From: a virus
Taxonomy: Duplodnaviria > Heunggongvirae > Uroviricota > Caudoviricetes
Virus record (IMG/VR): IMGVR_UViG_2531839619_000023
DNA: 40,950 nt
Direction: 5' to 3' (one strand)
The notes under the pieces are model-generated. The model did not search any database and was not told the origin of the DNA. It saw nothing but the letters and a program-made list of their open reading frames with translations. Position numbers and translations under genes: made by a program. Positions 3,609 to 17,330 of the stretch are shown one piece after another (positions within the stretch are counted from its first letter, which is position 1; every line of letters starts with the position of its first letter).

Positions 3609-3863
3609 ATGAATATGCAATCCTGCGGTAACAAAATGAATTTATTCGACTCCCTGAACAGCGCGCGCCGTCTGACCGAACTTGCCGGTGCGGTACTGGA
3701 ACGCAGTAAGCGCTATCCGCAACGTTTTGCACTGAAAACCACGCCGCCGGTAGGCAACGTGCAGGGAACCGGTGAAATTGAAATCACCATACAGACCAAC
3801 GGCCTGCGCCGCCGTGTGAAGGCCACCCGCATCAGCGGCTGCACGGTTTACTGGGAGGTGTGA
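3609..3863 (+). CDS. Hypothetical early protein
   Basis: ORF in the early operon; a GAGGTG Shine-Dalgarno at 3600-3605 favours the ATG at 3609 or 3615 over the track start at 3597. Confidence 0.4.
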   Translation: MNMQSCGNKMNLFDSLNSARRLTELAGAVLERSKRYPQRFALKTTPPVGNVQGTGEIEITIQTNGLRRRVKATRISGCTVYWEV

Positions 3864-3864
3864 G

Positions 3865-12167: not shown

Positions 12168-13831
12168 TGAATAACGCCGAAGAACTCTCCCCCTTACTGA
12201 CGAATACCGTCTCCACCCGCAAAATTGATCTGGCCGGTGAAAAAGCCCTGCTGGGCGTGGATGTGCCGGACAGCCTTGATTTGCCCGGTGATATGCCGGT
12301 ATTTCTGGATTATCAGGCCCGCTGGTTTGAGGATGAAAGCGAGGTCTGCATCGCGGAAAAATCCCGCCGCACCGGGCTTACCTGGGCGGAAGCCGGGCGT
12401 AACGTCATTACCGCCGCAAAGCCTAAGCGGCGTGGTGGCCGCAATGTGTTTTATGTGGGGTCAAAGCAGGAGATGGCGCTGGAATATATTTCTGCCTGCG
12501 CACTGTTCTCCCGTGCCTTTAACCAGCTGGCAGATGCTGATGTGTATGAGCAGACCTTCTGGGATCGGGATAAAAAAGAAGAAATTCTGACCTACATGAT
12601 CCGCTTTCCGAACAGTGGATTCAAAATTCAGGCACTGTCTTCCCGTCCGTCAAACCTGCGCGGCCTTCAGGGGGATGTGGTGATTGATGAAGCCGCGTTC
12701 CACGAGTCACTGGATGAGCTTCTCAAGGCGGCAATGGCGCTCACCATGTGGGGCGCGCGCGTGCGTATTATCTCCACGCATAACGGCGTCGATAATCTGT
12801 TTAATCAGTACATTCAGGAAGCCCGCGAGGGGCGCAAGGATTACAGCGTCCACCGCATTACCCTGGATGATGCCATTGCGGACGGGCTGTACCGTCGTAT
12901 CTGTTATGTCACCGGCCGCGAATGGTCACCGGAAAGCGAGCAGAAGTGGCGTGATGATCTCTACAAAAACGCCCCGACCCGTGAGGATGCCGACGAGGAA
13001 TACGGCTGTATCCCGAAAAAATCCGGCGGTGCCTATATTCCTCACGCGCTTATTGAAATGGCGATGCTCCGCGACATCCCGATTCTGACGTTTGAAGCCC
13101 CGGACGACTTCATCAGCCGTGCCGCATGGCTGCGTGAATCGGAGGTTTTAACCTGGTGTGAAGAACATTTAAAACCGCTTTTAGAGGCGTTAAATCCCCG
13201 TTCCCGCTTCAGCTTCGGGGAAGACTTTGCCCGCATCGGTGACCTCTCCTGCTTTGTGCTGCTGGAAATCACTGAATCCCTGGCAAAACGCGAGGTGTTT
13301 CGCGTGGAGCTGCGCAACCTGCCGTATGCCCAGCAGGAGCAGGTGATGATGTACATCCTGACCCGCGTTCCGGCGCTGGTCGGTGCGGCGTTCGACGCCA
13401 CCGGTAACGGCGGCTATCTGGCCGAAGCCGCGCTGCTGGCCTTTGGCCCGGACATCATCGACTGCGTGATGTTATCGCCGAAGTGGTACGGCGAGTGGAT
13501 GCCAAAACTGAAGGCCGAGTTTGAGGATCAGAATATCCTCGTCGCCCGCCATCAGACCACGCTTGATGATTTGCGCCATGTGAAGGTGGTGAACGGTATC
13601 CCGCAAATTGACAAGGGGCGTACGAAGGACCAGAACGCAACGGCTGTGAACGCCCGCCGCCATGGCGATTTTGCCGTGGCGCTCTGTATGGCAAACCGGG
13701 CGTCATACATGGAGGGCTTCATCCTGGATGAATCAGCCTGTCAGGCGCTGCCGGAGCGGTCGCGGGCCATGGAGGGCGGTTATCGTGATGACGATGAGGC
13801 ATATCATGAATTTGATCGGGGGTGCTGGTAG
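12167..13831 (+). CDS. Terminase large subunit (Mu gp28-like)
   Basis: 554 aa with an ATPase N-terminal domain (VVIDEAAFH Walker B-like) and a nuclease C-terminal domain; position. Confidence 0.9.
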   Translation: MNNAEELSPLLTNTVSTRKIDLAGEKALLGVDVPDSLDLPGDMPVFLDYQARWFEDESEVCIAEKSRRTGLTWAEAGRNVITAAKPKRRGGRNVFYVGSKQEMALEYISACALFSRAFNQLADADVYEQTFWDRDKKEEILTYMIRFPNSGFKIQALSSRPSNLRGLQGDVVIDEAAFHESLDELLKAAMALTMWGARVRIISTHNGVDNLFNQYIQEAREGRKDYSVHRITLDDAIADGLYRRICYVTGREWSPESEQKWRDDLYKNAPTREDADEEYGCIPKKSGGAYIPHALIEMAMLRDIPILTFEAPDDFISRAAWLRESEVLTWCEEHLKPLLEALNPRSRFSFGEDFARIGDLSCFVLLEITESLAKREVFRVELRNLPYAQQEQVMMYILTRVPALVGAAFDATGNGGYLAEAALLAFGPDIIDCVMLSPKWYGEWMPKLKAEFEDQNILVARHQTTLDDLRHVKVVNGIPQIDKGRTKDQNATAVNARRHGDFAVALCMANRASYMEGFILDESACQALPERSRAMEGGYRDDDEAYHEFDRGCW

Positions 13832-15420
13832 TGGGACGTATAATTGATCTTGACGGAAAACCTTTCTCCTTTGACCCGGAGATGCAGAGCGCCGCGCTGG
13901 ATATTCCGCAGATTGCCAGCCGTTATATTGAACATCCGGCCTCGGGTATCACCCCGAACCGGGCGGCACAGTGCCTTCGCGGGGCTGAACGTGGCGATCT
14001 GATTGCCCAGTCCGATCTGGCCGCTGACATTGAAGAAAAGGATACCCACCTTTTTGCAGAGCTGGGCAAGCGACGTCTTGCCATTCAGGGCGTGCCCTGG
14101 AGTATTGAGCCGCCCCCGAACGCCAGCGCGAATGAGAAAAAGGACGCGGAAATGCTCGACGAATATCTGCATTCCGCCGACTGGTTTGATGCCATGCTGT
14201 TTGATGCCACCGATGCCATCCTGAAAGGCTATTCCTGCATGGAGATTGAGCACGGGATGCTCGGTAAAATGCACATCATCCGCGCCATCCGCTGGCGTGA
14301 CAGCGGGCATTTCTGCCTTAACCCGGATGATTTGAGCGAACTGCGGCTGCGTGACGGCAGCCATGCCGGGGTGGCGTTTCAGCCCTTTGGCTGGATAGTG
14401 CATCAGTCACGTTCACGCACCGGCTACGGTGGTGCGACGGGGCTTGTCAGAACGCTTATCTGGCCGTTCATTTTCAAAAACTATTCCGTGCGCGATCTGG
14501 CTGAATTTCTGGAGGTGTACGGCCTGCCGATGAAGGTCGGTAAATACCCCTCCGGGGCAACACCGGAGCAGAAAAGCGCCCTGATGCGGGCGGTGATGGA
14601 TATCGGTCGACGTACAGGCGGGATCATCCCGGCCGGGATGTCGCTGGAGTTTCAGGCGGCAGCGAACGGTCAGGCCGATCCGTTTGAAACCATGATTTCG
14701 TGGGGGGAGCGTTCCATCTCCAAAGCTATCCTCGGCGGCACGCTGACCACGGAAGCCGGAGACAAGGGCGCACGTTCGCTGGGTGAAGTGCATAACGAGG
14801 TGCGCCGGGAAATCAGGGATTCTGATTTACGTCAGCTGGCCGCCACGCTGAACCGCGATCTGGTGTATCCGCTGTATGCCCTGAACACCGCCCACGCCAT
14901 TGATATCCGTCGCCTGCCGCGTATCTGTTTCCAGACAAAAGAGCCGGGGGATATCACCAAAATCACCAGTGCGGTGATGCAGCTCAGTACGGGGATGGAT
15001 ATTCCTGATCCCTGGGTACGGGAGCAGACCGGTATTCCACAGCCTGCCCCCGGTGAAGCCATCTTCCGTGTCCGTCAGAGTGGCAATGAACCTGCTCAGA
15101 CAGACAAAGAGATGCCACCGGAAAAACAGGAGAAGACAGAGCAGACAGCGCTGGCTGCCAGACTGCCGGAAGCGAAAAGCAGCCCCCGAGATGAACTGGA
15201 CGACATGGGGGATGCGGTGCCTGCCCGCCGGTTACAGGAGGCCATCGACCCGGTACTGGAGCCGGTCATTGATGCCATCAGAACGCGGGGGCTGGCGGAG
15301 GCACTGGCAGACCTGCCTGCCCTTTACCGTGAAATGGATGATTCCCGCCTGATGACGCTGCTCAGTGATGCCATGTTTGCTGCGGAAATGAAGGGGATGC
15401 TGGATGGCACAGGGGATTGA
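13822..15420 (+). CDS. Portal protein (Mu gp29-like)
   Basis: 532 aa following the terminase; acidic C-terminal region; GTG start overlaps the terminase end. Confidence 0.85.
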   Translation: MLVVGRIIDLDGKPFSFDPEMQSAALDIPQIASRYIEHPASGITPNRAAQCLRGAERGDLIAQSDLAADIEEKDTHLFAELGKRRLAIQGVPWSIEPPPNASANEKKDAEMLDEYLHSADWFDAMLFDATDAILKGYSCMEIEHGMLGKMHIIRAIRWRDSGHFCLNPDDLSELRLRDGSHAGVAFQPFGWIVHQSRSRTGYGGATGLVRTLIWPFIFKNYSVRDLAEFLEVYGLPMKVGKYPSGATPEQKSALMRAVMDIGRRTGGIIPAGMSLEFQAAANGQADPFETMISWGERSISKAILGGTLTTEAGDKGARSLGEVHNEVRREIRDSDLRQLAATLNRDLVYPLYALNTAHAIDIRRLPRICFQTKEPGDITKITSAVMQLSTGMDIPDPWVREQTGIPQPAPGEAIFRVRQSGNEPAQTDKEMPPEKQEKTEQTALAARLPEAKSSPRDELDDMGDAVPARRLQEAIDPVLEPVIDAIRTRGLAEALADLPALYREMDDSRLMTLLSDAMFAAEMKGMLDGTGD

Positions 15421-16735
15421 TTTAGGTTATGCCGCCACGCTTCCCTCAAAAGAGGCGGTGGCATACTTCCGCGCCAAAGGGGCGCATATCAGCTGGAACT
15501 GGTTCGAAACAGACGCGGATGTTCATGCCCGTTCGTTCACGGCGGCAAAAGTGGCACGCCTGGACGTACTGACCACACTACAGGCGGAAGTGCAACGGGC
15601 CATTGATGAGGGGATTTCACAGAAAGCATTTATCCGCACACTGACCCCCCGCCTGCAAAAGCTGGGATGGTGGGGAAAGCAGATTGTGGTGGACAGCGCC
15701 GGTAACGCAGAAGAAGTGCAGCTGGGCTGTCCCCGCCGTCTGGCGCTGATTTACAACGTGAACACCCGCGTGGCTTACAATGCCGGGCGTTACACGCAGA
15801 TGATGAACAACACGGACACGCATCCGTTCTGGCAGTATGTGGCGGTGATGGACAGCCGCACCCGCCCGGCGCATTCCGCCCTTAACGGTCTGGTATTCCG
15901 CTATGACGATCCGTTCTGGAATACACACTACCCACCCAATGGCTGGAACTGCCGCTGCCGTGTCCGGCCATTGTCTCAGACCCGTCTGGATGCAATGGGG
16001 TTATCCGTTTCATCCGGTCAGGATCATCTTTCCACCCGCAATGTTGAGGCTGGCGTGGATAAGCAGACCGGAGAAGTCAGAGAAATGCCGGTGACCACAT
16101 ATTCAGATGGCACCAGAACCATGACACCGGATGTGGGCTGGTCATATAACCCCGGTTCGGCGGCGTTCGGCACAGACCAGGCGCTGCTCCGCAAGTTGAT
16201 CGAGGTGAAAAGCCCGGCGTTACGGGAAATGGTGGTTCAGGAGATGAACAACAGCCCGGAGCGGCAGCTGGCGTTCCGCATCTGGGCAAAAAACATCATG
16301 AAAACCCGGCGAGGCGGTAACGATATCCGCACGCTGGGCTTTATGACCGAAAGCATTGCGCAGGCGGTGGAAAGCCGGACGGGAACGCCACCGGCCCGCC
16401 TGCTGGCGATGAGCGGTAAAAATGTGCTCCATGCGGACAGCATGAAACATCAGAATGACGGTATCGCCCTGACACCGGAGGATTTCGGGCGCTTACCGGC
16501 AATGCTGGCAAGGCCAAAAGCGGTACTGTGGGACAAACGGCACAACAATCTGATGTATATCGTGGAAAATCAGGATGGCAGTGTGCAGATTGCCGTTAAT
16601 GCACCGTACAGCCTGAAGCGTCAGCCGGATAAACTGGATGTGATTGTTAATGCTTACCGGGTTATCAATATGGATAAGCTGAAATCGGATATCCGGGGCG
16701 GAATGCTTGAGGTACTGGAAGGAGATATTGATTAA
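15404..16735 (+). CDS. Head morphogenesis protein (Mu F / gp30-like)
   Basis: 443 aa after the portal, with the conserved WNCRCRV segment typical of Mu F-like proteins. Confidence 0.8.
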   Translation: MAQGIDLGYAATLPSKEAVAYFRAKGAHISWNWFETDADVHARSFTAAKVARLDVLTTLQAEVQRAIDEGISQKAFIRTLTPRLQKLGWWGKQIVVDSAGNAEEVQLGCPRRLALIYNVNTRVAYNAGRYTQMMNNTDTHPFWQYVAVMDSRTRPAHSALNGLVFRYDDPFWNTHYPPNGWNCRCRVRPLSQTRLDAMGLSVSSGQDHLSTRNVEAGVDKQTGEVREMPVTTYSDGTRTMTPDVGWSYNPGSAAFGTDQALLRKLIEVKSPALREMVVQEMNNSPERQLAFRIWAKNIMKTRRGGNDIRTLGFMTESIAQAVESRTGTPPARLLAMSGKNVLHADSMKHQNDGIALTPEDFGRLPAMLARPKAVLWDKRHNNLMYIVENQDGSVQIAVNAPYSLKRQPDKLDVIVNAYRVINMDKLKSDIRGGMLEVLEGDID

Positions 16736-16736
16736 C

Positions 16737-16817
16737 GGTCAGTGGCGGGGGTCGAACCCGCATACATGATCCACCCGGAGGCAGGCACCGACTTTACCAG
16801 TTAAGCGTACACTGACC
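16737..16817 (-). other. tRNA-like minihelix (acceptor stem plus T-arm) with a non-canonical anticodon arm; possible tRNA remnant or structured RNA
   Basis: On the minus strand a 7-bp acceptor pairing (GTCAGTG / CACTGAC) flanks a perfect T-arm (GCGGG TTCGACC CCCGC, loop fits T-psi-C-R-A) and a GG-containing D-loop region. No canonical anticodon arm could be folded by eye. Confidence 0.3.
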
Positions 16818-16856
16818 GCCTGCTTATTTTATATTCATATTTTATACGGAGGCAAT

Positions 16857-17330
16857 ATGTCATCCATTGATGCCGCCGTCGTTGTTGACGTTACGCGTCT
16901 CCAGCGGGTCTTTGCCCGGCTTCAGTTTGTGGGTGGCGGAAAAGACCTGGCCCGCAGTGTGGCGTCCAGCCTTCTGTCATCGTCAGAAATGGCGTTTGAA
17001 CAGGAAAAAGAGCCGGACGGCGAACGCTGGCATGACTGGTCAGATCCTTACCGCAAGTGGCGTACCCGTAAGGGATACATGCCCGGCAAAATCCTGACGC
17101 TGAACGGCGATCTGGCCCGACGCCTGACCACGGATTATGGCGACACCTGGGCGCTGATTGGATCAAATGAGCCTTATGCGGCCATTCATCAGTGGGGTGG
17201 CCTGCCAGGTATGCCGCCGGGACCGGCGGCCATTGGTGCACGTCCGTATATGGGCTTTGATCAGGTGGCAGAGCAGGAGATCATGGACGAAATCAGAAAA
17301 CGCTTTAAAAAGGCCACAGAAACGCCTTAA
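16857..17330 (+). CDS. Virion morphogenesis protein (Mu G / gp31-like)
   Basis: 157 aa after F, with an ACGGAGG ribosome-binding site. Confidence 0.75.
   Translation: MSSIDAAVVVDVTRLQRVFARLQFVGGGKDLARSVASSLLSSSEMAFEQEKEPDGERWHDWSDPYRKWRTRKGYMPGKILTLNGDLARRLTTDYGDTWALIGSNEPYAAIHQWGGLPGMPPGPAAIGARPYMGFDQVAEQEIMDEIRKRFKKATETP

Follow-up and report, generated by a model that had tools for sequence, protein, structure and literature searches.

Genes and features at the locus

The stretch of DNA analysed here, IMG/VR virus record IMGVR_UViG_2531839619_000023 (Caudoviricetes), is 40,950 nucleotides (nt) long and is referred to below as the window. It represents a Mu-like transposable prophage whose head genes all lie on the plus strand. 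Two of them, the gene for MuF and gene G, are separated by a spacer of 121 base pairs (bp), and this spacer contains, on the minus strand, a gene for a transfer RNA (tRNA)-like RNA. Read from position 16817 to 16737, the layout of the minus strand is GGUCAGUG-UAC-GCUU-AACUGGUA-AAGU-C-G-GUGCCUGCCUCCGGGUGGAUCAU-GUAU-GCGGG-UUCGACC-CCCGC-CACUGACC. Its parts and the neighbouring genes are listed in Table 1; other loci compared below are denoted by L numbers.

According to the modeled fold, the RNA would keep the whole body of a tRNA: the acceptor helix, the D-arm, the T-arm with its T-psi-C loop, and the tertiary pairs U8-A14 and A15-U48. The D-loop has 8 nt in the canonical order A14 A15 .. G18 G19 .. 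A21. The additional C of the linker appears as an insertion in the Rfam tRNA alignment. A preliminary description of the locus, made from the sequence alone, had noticed a 7-bp acceptor-type pairing on the minus strand between F and G, a canonical T-arm, and no canonical anticodon arm. The T-arm is present in the minus-strand sequence exactly as described, and the acceptor pairing is real but extends over 8 bp. The lack of an anticodon arm is borne out by ARAGORN, which finds no tRNA, by the Rfam tRNA model, which skips 24 nt at this place, and by the predicted fold, which ends in a UCCG tetraloop. The word "minihelix" used in that description understated the element, which is more than a minihelix because a canonical D-arm is present, together with a tertiary core.

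ARAGORN reported neither a tRNA nor a transfer-messenger RNA (tmRNA) in the window and likewise found nothing at the element in many of the relatives. A scan of the whole window against Rfam at gathering thresholds reported nothing either. When 351 nt (16600-16950) were scanned, the tRNA model RF00005 matched 16737-16816 with 31.0 bits against a cut-off of 29 (E-value 9.4e-5). The match aligns the acceptor, D-arm and T-arm and bridges the remainder by a local end, with 24 unaligned nt replacing the 18-nt anticodon region. Among 11 loci of relatives scanned with Rfam, RF00005 was reported for L033 only. An additional match, to the small RNA STnc480 at 16812-16847, scored 21.7 bits against a cut-off of 72 (E-value 0.73); it lies in the A/T-rich promoter, and we judged it to be a composition artefact.

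Table 1. The tRNA-like RNA gene, its parts and the surrounding genes in the window
Feature	Position	Strand	Remarks
tRNA-like RNA gene, whole	16737..16817	-	81 nt, 5' to 3' acceptor strand; no encoded CCA
Acceptor 5' strand, GGUCAGUG	16810..16817	-	pairs with 16737-16744 over 8 bp; read from sequence
Linker UAC	16807..16809	-	U8, A9 and one extra C relative to canonical tRNA; invariant in the family (T9 A10 C11, alignment A1)
D-arm, stem GCUU/AAGU, loop AACUGGUA	16791..16806	-	A14, A15, G18, G19 present
Anticodon-arm replacement, irregular helix of 23 nt	16766..16788	-	proximal helix of about 3 bp, GUG/CAU; distal hairpin CUGCC/GGUGG; by folding
Tetraloop UCCG capping the replaced arm	16776-16779	-	no 7-nt loop, no anticodon
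Variable loop GUAU	16762..16765	-	last U can pair with A15 (Levitt pair)
T-arm GCGGG-UUCGACC-CCCGC	16745..16761	-	read from sequence
Acceptor 3' strand, CACUGACC	16737..16744	-	followed by GUUAAUC, no CCA; 2 nt past the MuF stop codon
Predicted sigma-70 promoter, TTGCCT-18 nt-TAAAAT	16826..16855	-	from a scan; -10 hexamer ends 8 nt before the first acceptor base
Portal gene	13822-15420	+	head block
MuF	15404-16735	+	flanking, head morphogenesis; Pfam Phage_Mu_F and MuF_C; context, outside the RNA
Gene G	16857-17330	+	flanking, virion morphogenesis; Pfam Phage_tail_S; context
Protease gene	17507-18631	+	
Major head protein gpT	18631-19578	+	

Homologs and covariation

Relatives of the element were collected by scanning viral, genomic and metagenomic collections for the pattern and by an E. 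coli search, and 29 distinct sequences were aligned (alignment A1). Pairing was counted for the cloverleaf minus the distal anticodon arm, which amounts to 21 pairs and 609 cells. Standard pairs occupy 91.0% of these cells, compared to 73.4% in column shuffles and 40-55% when pairing partners are slid by 1-3 columns. Changes on both sides occur in 13 of the 21 pairs (115 cells), and the covariation score of 0.511, versus 0.174 after shuffling, was reached by none of 500 shuffles. The covarying positions comprise seven of the eight acceptor pairs, D-stem pairs 13:26 and 14:25, pairs 30:64, 31:63 and 32:62 of the replaced arm, and a single T-stem pair, 70:84, which switches from C:G to U:A in 11 sequences. 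Nucleotides that define the tRNA L-shape (U8, A14, A15, G18, G19 and the T-loop UUCGA) are invariant, as are D-arm columns A16 A17 G20 G21 T22 A23 and A55 of the variable loop, where T56 is at least 90% conserved. The entire T-loop is invariant save for C/U at one position.

We then used A1 to build a covariance model, R1. In the search with this model, family members scored at least 61.5 bits and ordinary tRNAs at most 46 bits. A second copy of the RNA was sought in the window but none was found: R1 has a sole match there, the element itself, with 82.7 bits and an E-value of 1.8e-18. The preliminary description had offered a tRNA-like structured RNA as one of its readings, and had named the lack of a covariance-model match, or a full cloverleaf with an anticodon, as outcomes that would speak against the element as described. 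What we found is a model match and no anticodon. The Rfam and R1 matches, together with covariation in 29 sequences, support that reading, and we consider it very likely that the element is a functional tRNA-like RNA gene.

The alignment is also informative about the strand. On the minus strand, 56 cells are G:U and 13 are A-C; on the plus strand the same 56 cells become C-A, and pairing of the complement drops to 83.9%. This G:U bias and the difference in pairing indicate that the minus-strand RNA is the molecule under selection, rather than late mRNA or a DNA cruciform. It is highly improbable, in our estimate, that the plus-strand complement instead serves as a cis element of the late mRNA, be it a terminator, attenuator, processing site or stabilizer. 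The complement does fold (-28.1 kcal/mol, z -1.18), and behind it the plus strand has a T-rich tract. On the other hand, in addition to the 56 cells lost as C-A, the T-psi-C and G18 G19 loops exist on the minus strand only, and the same RNA is found outside F-G mRNAs. Moreover, a scan for terminator-like sites detected none on the plus strand at 16737-16860. An intrinsic terminator would be a compact G+C-rich hairpin with a U-run directly adjoining it, but here the closing helix has 65 nt inside it and is about 6 nt away from the start of the U-rich tract. The earlier suggestion of a long-range hairpin acting as a terminator is therefore not supported, and it is further disfavored by gene G, which comes next in the same orientation and lacks space for a separate promoter. 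The T-rich tract noted on the plus strand (approximately 16823-16845) is indeed there, but it is the A/T-rich stretch that holds the promoter of the minus-strand gene.

As to the origin of the family, metagenome locus L172 (1602-1676) encodes an ARAGORN-valid tRNA-Met(CAT) that combines the family body and the UAC linker and scores 62 bits with R1. Based on this sequence, the family probably descends from a tRNA of the same kind, L172 being a possible ancestor type or an intermediate. Such a descent makes it plausible to ask whether the element is simply a decaying tRNA pseudogene or attachment (att) site remnant without function, all the more so as ARAGORN rejects it and both the anticodon and the CCA are missing. 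However, covariation and an invariant core are seen across hosts of several orders, and the promoter is conserved as well. The compared E. coli variants are only one base away from the element of the window, and the element is internal to the phage, not at its end. The remnant proposed in the preliminary description is likewise at odds with compensatory changes that keep the fold across phages whose flanking proteins are 43-55% identical. We regard loss of function as extremely unlikely.

Position of the gene and mosaic exchange

Wherever the fetched stretch of a Mu-like phage contained both MuF and G, the RNA gene is located between them on the opposite strand. Among the hosts are E. coli, Leminorella, Photorhabdus, Gilliamella and Shewanella, with further copies from metagenomes, and MuF of these phages is 43-81% identical to that of the window. 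In L141 and L142, where MuF is only 29% identical, a degenerate version scoring 29 bits occupies the same antisense place between F and G (3777-3864 in both). It retains a four-way junction, a T-arm-like hairpin and a strong predicted promoter, TTGATT-17 nt-TATAGT. The element is absent from the more distant Mu-like loci L137, L138 and L144-L146. In Mu and Yersinia phage vB_YpM_3, F and G overlap, leaving no spacer, and R1 has no match, which makes the RNA gene an accessory insertion.

Judged by its sequence features, the element would thus qualify structurally as a "moron" at the F/G junction of one Mu-like phage lineage, pointing against the late operon. Like phage morons, it sits between genes that overlap in Mu, has a predicted promoter, is followed by a terminator in some relatives and undergoes mosaic exchange. 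It differs from them in what it carries, namely a structured RNA instead of a gene for a protein.

The mosaic exchange is most apparent in the comparison of the window with L104. Across the portal gene and gene G the two share 95-99% identity, which drops to 63-69% over 16500-16800 and to 81% over 16795-16893. The divergent stretch takes in roughly 80 codons at the end of MuF as well as the RNA gene with its promoter, and the RNA of L104 belongs to another subfamily. Besides this patch, at 16500-16850, a second mosaic patch between the same two sequences is located inside MuF, at 15800-16100. In L158 and L163 the module consisting of the MuF C-terminal end plus the RNA is duplicated, with two different copies flanking a C-terminal fragment of MuF.

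Copies at other loci

Family members are also found outside the F-G position. In E. coli STEC17-183 (L003:4996-5296) and JNEC-KY179 (L004:4996-5192) they form tandem arrays of three and two units, respectively, with different arms. The island that carries the array extends about 245 bp past it, occurs at two unrelated chromosomal sites and encodes Mor, PerC, SSB, RepA-helicase and Icd along with a C4 antisense RNA. One of the units (L003a) is named tRNA-Tyr by PGAP; its arm, CAGCC-UGUACA-GGCUG, may resemble the repeat hairpin of the E. coli I-F CRISPR.

A Mu-like element represented by L098 (2293-3765) and L094 (428-1055) carries a common RNA beyond gpT, past which the two sequences diverge after 24 nt into different same-strand cargo. 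The cargo is either a DUF2971 protein, which matches the PADLOC candidate defense family PDC-S31, or an uncharacterized 164-residue protein. With a pairing of toxin and RNA antitoxin in mind, we searched for relatives of the DUF2971 neighbor, but obtained self matches only. This divergence raises the question of whether the conserved core acts at the DNA level as a recombination or integration anchor, that is, as a site where accessory cargo passed between phages would land or cross over. The duplicated modules of L158 and L163 and the mosaic boundary at the start of gene G point in the same direction. However, there is no associated integrase and most phages have no adjacent cargo. Nor would covariation of the RNA type, G:U pairs included, be expected from a role at the DNA level. 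We consider an anchor very unlikely.

Finally, in Enterobacteriaceae bacterium G50 (JALNTX010000003.1) a family member is present beside each of the type I-E CRISPR arrays (L033:2392-2467 and L079:2877-2952). The two arrays, arranged as iap-array-cas2/cas1 and queD-array-queE, are accompanied by two different family members, each about 100-150 nt beyond the trailer-end repeat and convergent with array transcription. Because of this finding, we asked if CRISPR-adjacent copies are a general enterobacterial feature. The two equivalent sites in E. coli K-12 contain nothing, the best score there being 12 bits.

Promoter and terminator signals

The -35 hexamer of the promoter predicted for the window's RNA coincides in part with the Shine-Dalgarno sequence of gene G, read on the opposite strand. 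A sigma-70-like promoter, ending 4-13 nt upstream, is predicted for every stand-alone family member, and in E. coli variants mutations affect the spacer and the discriminator region, with both hexamers kept. In Leminorella, Photorhabdus and Gilliamella, a G+C-rich hairpin and a U-run are located directly 3' of the RNA; for these copies the tRNA-like RNA is therefore the sole possible product. No obvious terminator is seen after the E. coli copies, and transcription from them would consequently run antisense into MuF.

Could the promoter itself be the working part? In that case, a convergent unit would damp transcription reading into the late genes in the lysogen (or beyond the end of a CRISPR array), and the fold would just provide a stable, harmless product that is quickly released. 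The conserved promoter and the expected antisense run into MuF are consistent with this possibility, as is the orientation of the gene, which opposes the late operon in the Mu-like phages examined and precursor CRISPR RNA (pre-crRNA) transcription at both G50 arrays. However, it leaves unexplained why the tertiary core is invariant and why compensatory changes are found in four helices. Moreover, copies with an immediate terminator yield no long antisense transcript, and the array in L003/L004 is co-directional with the neighboring genes. We consider such a role quite unlikely.

The replaced arm and the acceptor

A 7-nt loop on a 5-bp stem was found in none of the 29 aligned members. The arm that takes its place is 16-35 nt long and has a terminal loop of 3-4 nt in 22 members; 7-8-bp stems with 10-14-nt loops also occur. 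Its base is formed by 3-4 conserved covarying pairs, which in the modeled structure would stack on the D-stem; past these pairs the arm varies freely. Exceptionally stable tetraloops recur on unrelated stems: UCCG in the window and L091; UUCG in L007/L018 (at the same place as UCCG in the window), in L017 and in metagenome loci L154/L163 and L158; GCAA in Photorhabdus; GUAA in metagenome locus L171; and CUUG in L082.

This variation admits an explanation in which the tRNA body is a scaffold for stability and processing, and the hypervariable distal arm is the functional part, for example a hairpin titrating an RNA-binding protein in the manner of RNA anti-CRISPRs or pseudo-ToxI. In keeping with it, the length and sequence of the distal arm differ even among close relatives and are exchanged by recombination, units of the tandem arrays have different arms, the commonest subfamily keeps a 2x3 internal loop, AA/CAC, and two copies are located at CRISPR array ends; the possible likeness of the L003a arm to the I-F repeat hairpin would fit as well. 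Yet many arms are minimal helices with UNCG, GNRA or CUUG tetraloops, that is, inert-looking caps. There is also no arm motif common to the whole family, and conservation is strongest in the tRNA core. On this evidence we find the scaffold explanation unlikely.

The opposite end of the molecule varies too, the closing helix ranging from 6 bp to 14 bp (the latter in an extended stem in L086). Judging from the alignment, no single aminoacylation identity is preserved across the family. A histidine-type identity (G-1:C73) would fit the copy in the window, but the pair is G:C in 10 of the 29 sequences only, and we rejected it as a family feature. The alanine-type G3:U70 is absent; the 3:70 pair is either C:G, as in the window, or U:A.

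Comparison with known RNAs and phage loci

With ordinary tRNAs (RF00005) the RNA shares the acceptor helix, the D-arm with A14/A15/G18/G19, a 4-nt variable loop and the T-arm with the UUCGA loop. It differs from them by the missing anticodon arm, the additional nucleotide in the 8-9 linker, the lack of CCA and an acceptor that often has at least 8 bp. tmRNA (SsrA) is similarly a tRNA mimic without an anticodon, but the RNA of the window has neither a tag nor pseudoknots, lacks G3:U70 and possesses a full D-stem; neither ARAGORN nor the Rfam scans reported a tmRNA in the window. The tRNA function of SsrA reportedly affects repression in Mu, which would be a precedent for tRNA mimicry in Mu biology. 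Another bacterial tRNA mimic is YrlA, a non-coding Y RNA-like molecule bound by Ro/Rsr, sometimes encoded by phages, that imitates the tRNA elbow and acceptor. YrlA ends in the Ro-binding stem (a permuted layout), unlike the RNA studied here, which ends in the acceptor helix. In addition, YrlA had no Rfam match in the window or in the scanned loci of relatives, and the prophage contains no rsr gene.

At the level of loci, Pseudomonas Mu-like phages carry an anti-CRISPR locus between G and protease gene I. Both that locus and the RNA gene, which is one gene away from the corresponding position, are small accessory units in the head-gene block with their own promoter (here a predicted one). They differ in that the product in the window is an RNA and is encoded on the opposite strand. 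Phage RNA decoys, such as RNA anti-CRISPRs and pseudo-ToxI, are known, and the decoy principle is comparable.

Possible role

Since an RNA without an anticodon cannot decode, we propose that it is a non-translating mimic of the tRNA body. The tRNA body is recognized by RNase P, the CCA-adding enzyme, EF-Tu, T-arm modification enzymes and toxins that target the acceptor end. We favor mimicry because the conserved part of the RNA is what these proteins target and a cap that looks inert takes the place of the decoding end. On balance, the best overall explanation appears to be an accessory gene, separately transcribed as predicted from its promoter, for a non-decoding mimic of the tRNA body. Host RNA polymerase might use this promoter to transcribe the gene in the lysogen or soon after infection, at a time when late transcription has not yet passed over the locus. 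The RNA ends would be set by initiation near the acceptor and by trimming with tRNA-processing enzymes, and CCA would be added. The mature RNA could then bind a protein that recognizes the tRNA elbow and acceptor end, either as a decoy or as a cofactor. Candidate partners include a toxin or defense effector that targets tRNA and an enzyme of tRNA processing or modification. We put forward the decoy or mimic mechanism as such tentatively, as a possible rather than a probable one.

Proximity to the anti-CRISPR slot of Pseudomonas Mu-like phages, mosaic exchange and defense-related neighbors would fit a conflict-related role. Taking this further, the family might be a class of RNA-based counter-defense or immunity factors, distributed among transposable phages, their relatives and defense loci, from which the decoding end has been removed; to this proposal we assign a low probability. 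Such an RNA would neutralize an elbow- or acceptor-recognizing protein, for example a toxin that modifies or cleaves the acceptor end, or would be its cofactor or sensor. The variable arm and the acceptor sequence would then diversify in an arms race.

Several observations weigh against a tRNA-body mimic. The internal loop kept by the commonest subfamily suggests that the arm is more than an inert cap. Neither the acceptor sequence nor the discriminator base is conserved, and mismatches of the 1:72 type occur; together with the extended stems, this variability means that the RNA may not be handled as a standard tRNA substrate. Folding, a check proposed in the preliminary description, did reveal a stable tetraloop hairpin in the arm, but overall the minus strand folds no more stably than shuffled sequence (z -0.51), and it is therefore the homologs and covariation, not thermodynamic stability, that set the element apart from chance. 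Transcription, the RNA ends and CCA addition are all features that we infer. A decoy would have to compete with the abundant tRNA pool. No gene is consistently adjacent save MuF and G. A toxin domain that the RNA might neutralize was sought on MuF, but only Phage_Mu_F and MuF_C were found there and PADLOC gave no match.

tRNAs encoded by phages are usually explained by codon usage or by replacement of tRNAs cleaved by defense nucleases. The present family cannot decode, yet its tRNA body has been kept by selection across several orders of Gammaproteobacteria. If the RNA is indeed a tRNA-body mimic, it would point to a protein-tRNA interaction that phages or prophages manipulate by RNA mimicry. 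The engineered "tRNA scaffold", in which a tRNA body lends stability and processing, would then also have a natural counterpart.

Annotation and distribution in E. coli

We searched the literature and found no description of the element or of the family. The identical sequence is nevertheless labeled "tRNA-OTHER" in RefSeq/PGAP, on the strand opposite to the head genes; thus, the family is already visible as an annotation, but is apparently undescribed as a family. It accounts for this recurrent label, and R1 can find members that tRNA finders miss.

A 131-nt spacer query returned 174 records from 173 of 5426 complete E. coli genomes (approximately 3%), including O157:H7 strains, and 168 of these matches span at least 80% of the query. 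None of the chromosomal E. coli tRNA genes matched the spacer in the same search. The compared E. coli variants are one base off the RNA of the window, a purine-purine exchange at T-loop position 57. The change of G57 to A (UUCAACC) is found in a large group that includes O157:H7, e.g. L150:301-431 from E. coli 2014C-3011 of the H22-H39 group. Strains with this change receive no tRNA-OTHER call from PGAP, and annotation therefore undercounts the element.

E. coli E2855 contains an identical prophage with a Mu-type transposase, a Mor-family activator, Com and Mom. Between the tail-fiber invertase and com/mom, the window has an open reading frame of 679 residues (33503-35542), the E2855 counterpart of which is annotated in RefSeq as DUF6645. 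PADLOC gave no match for it, and it is probably another accessory gene of the prophage.

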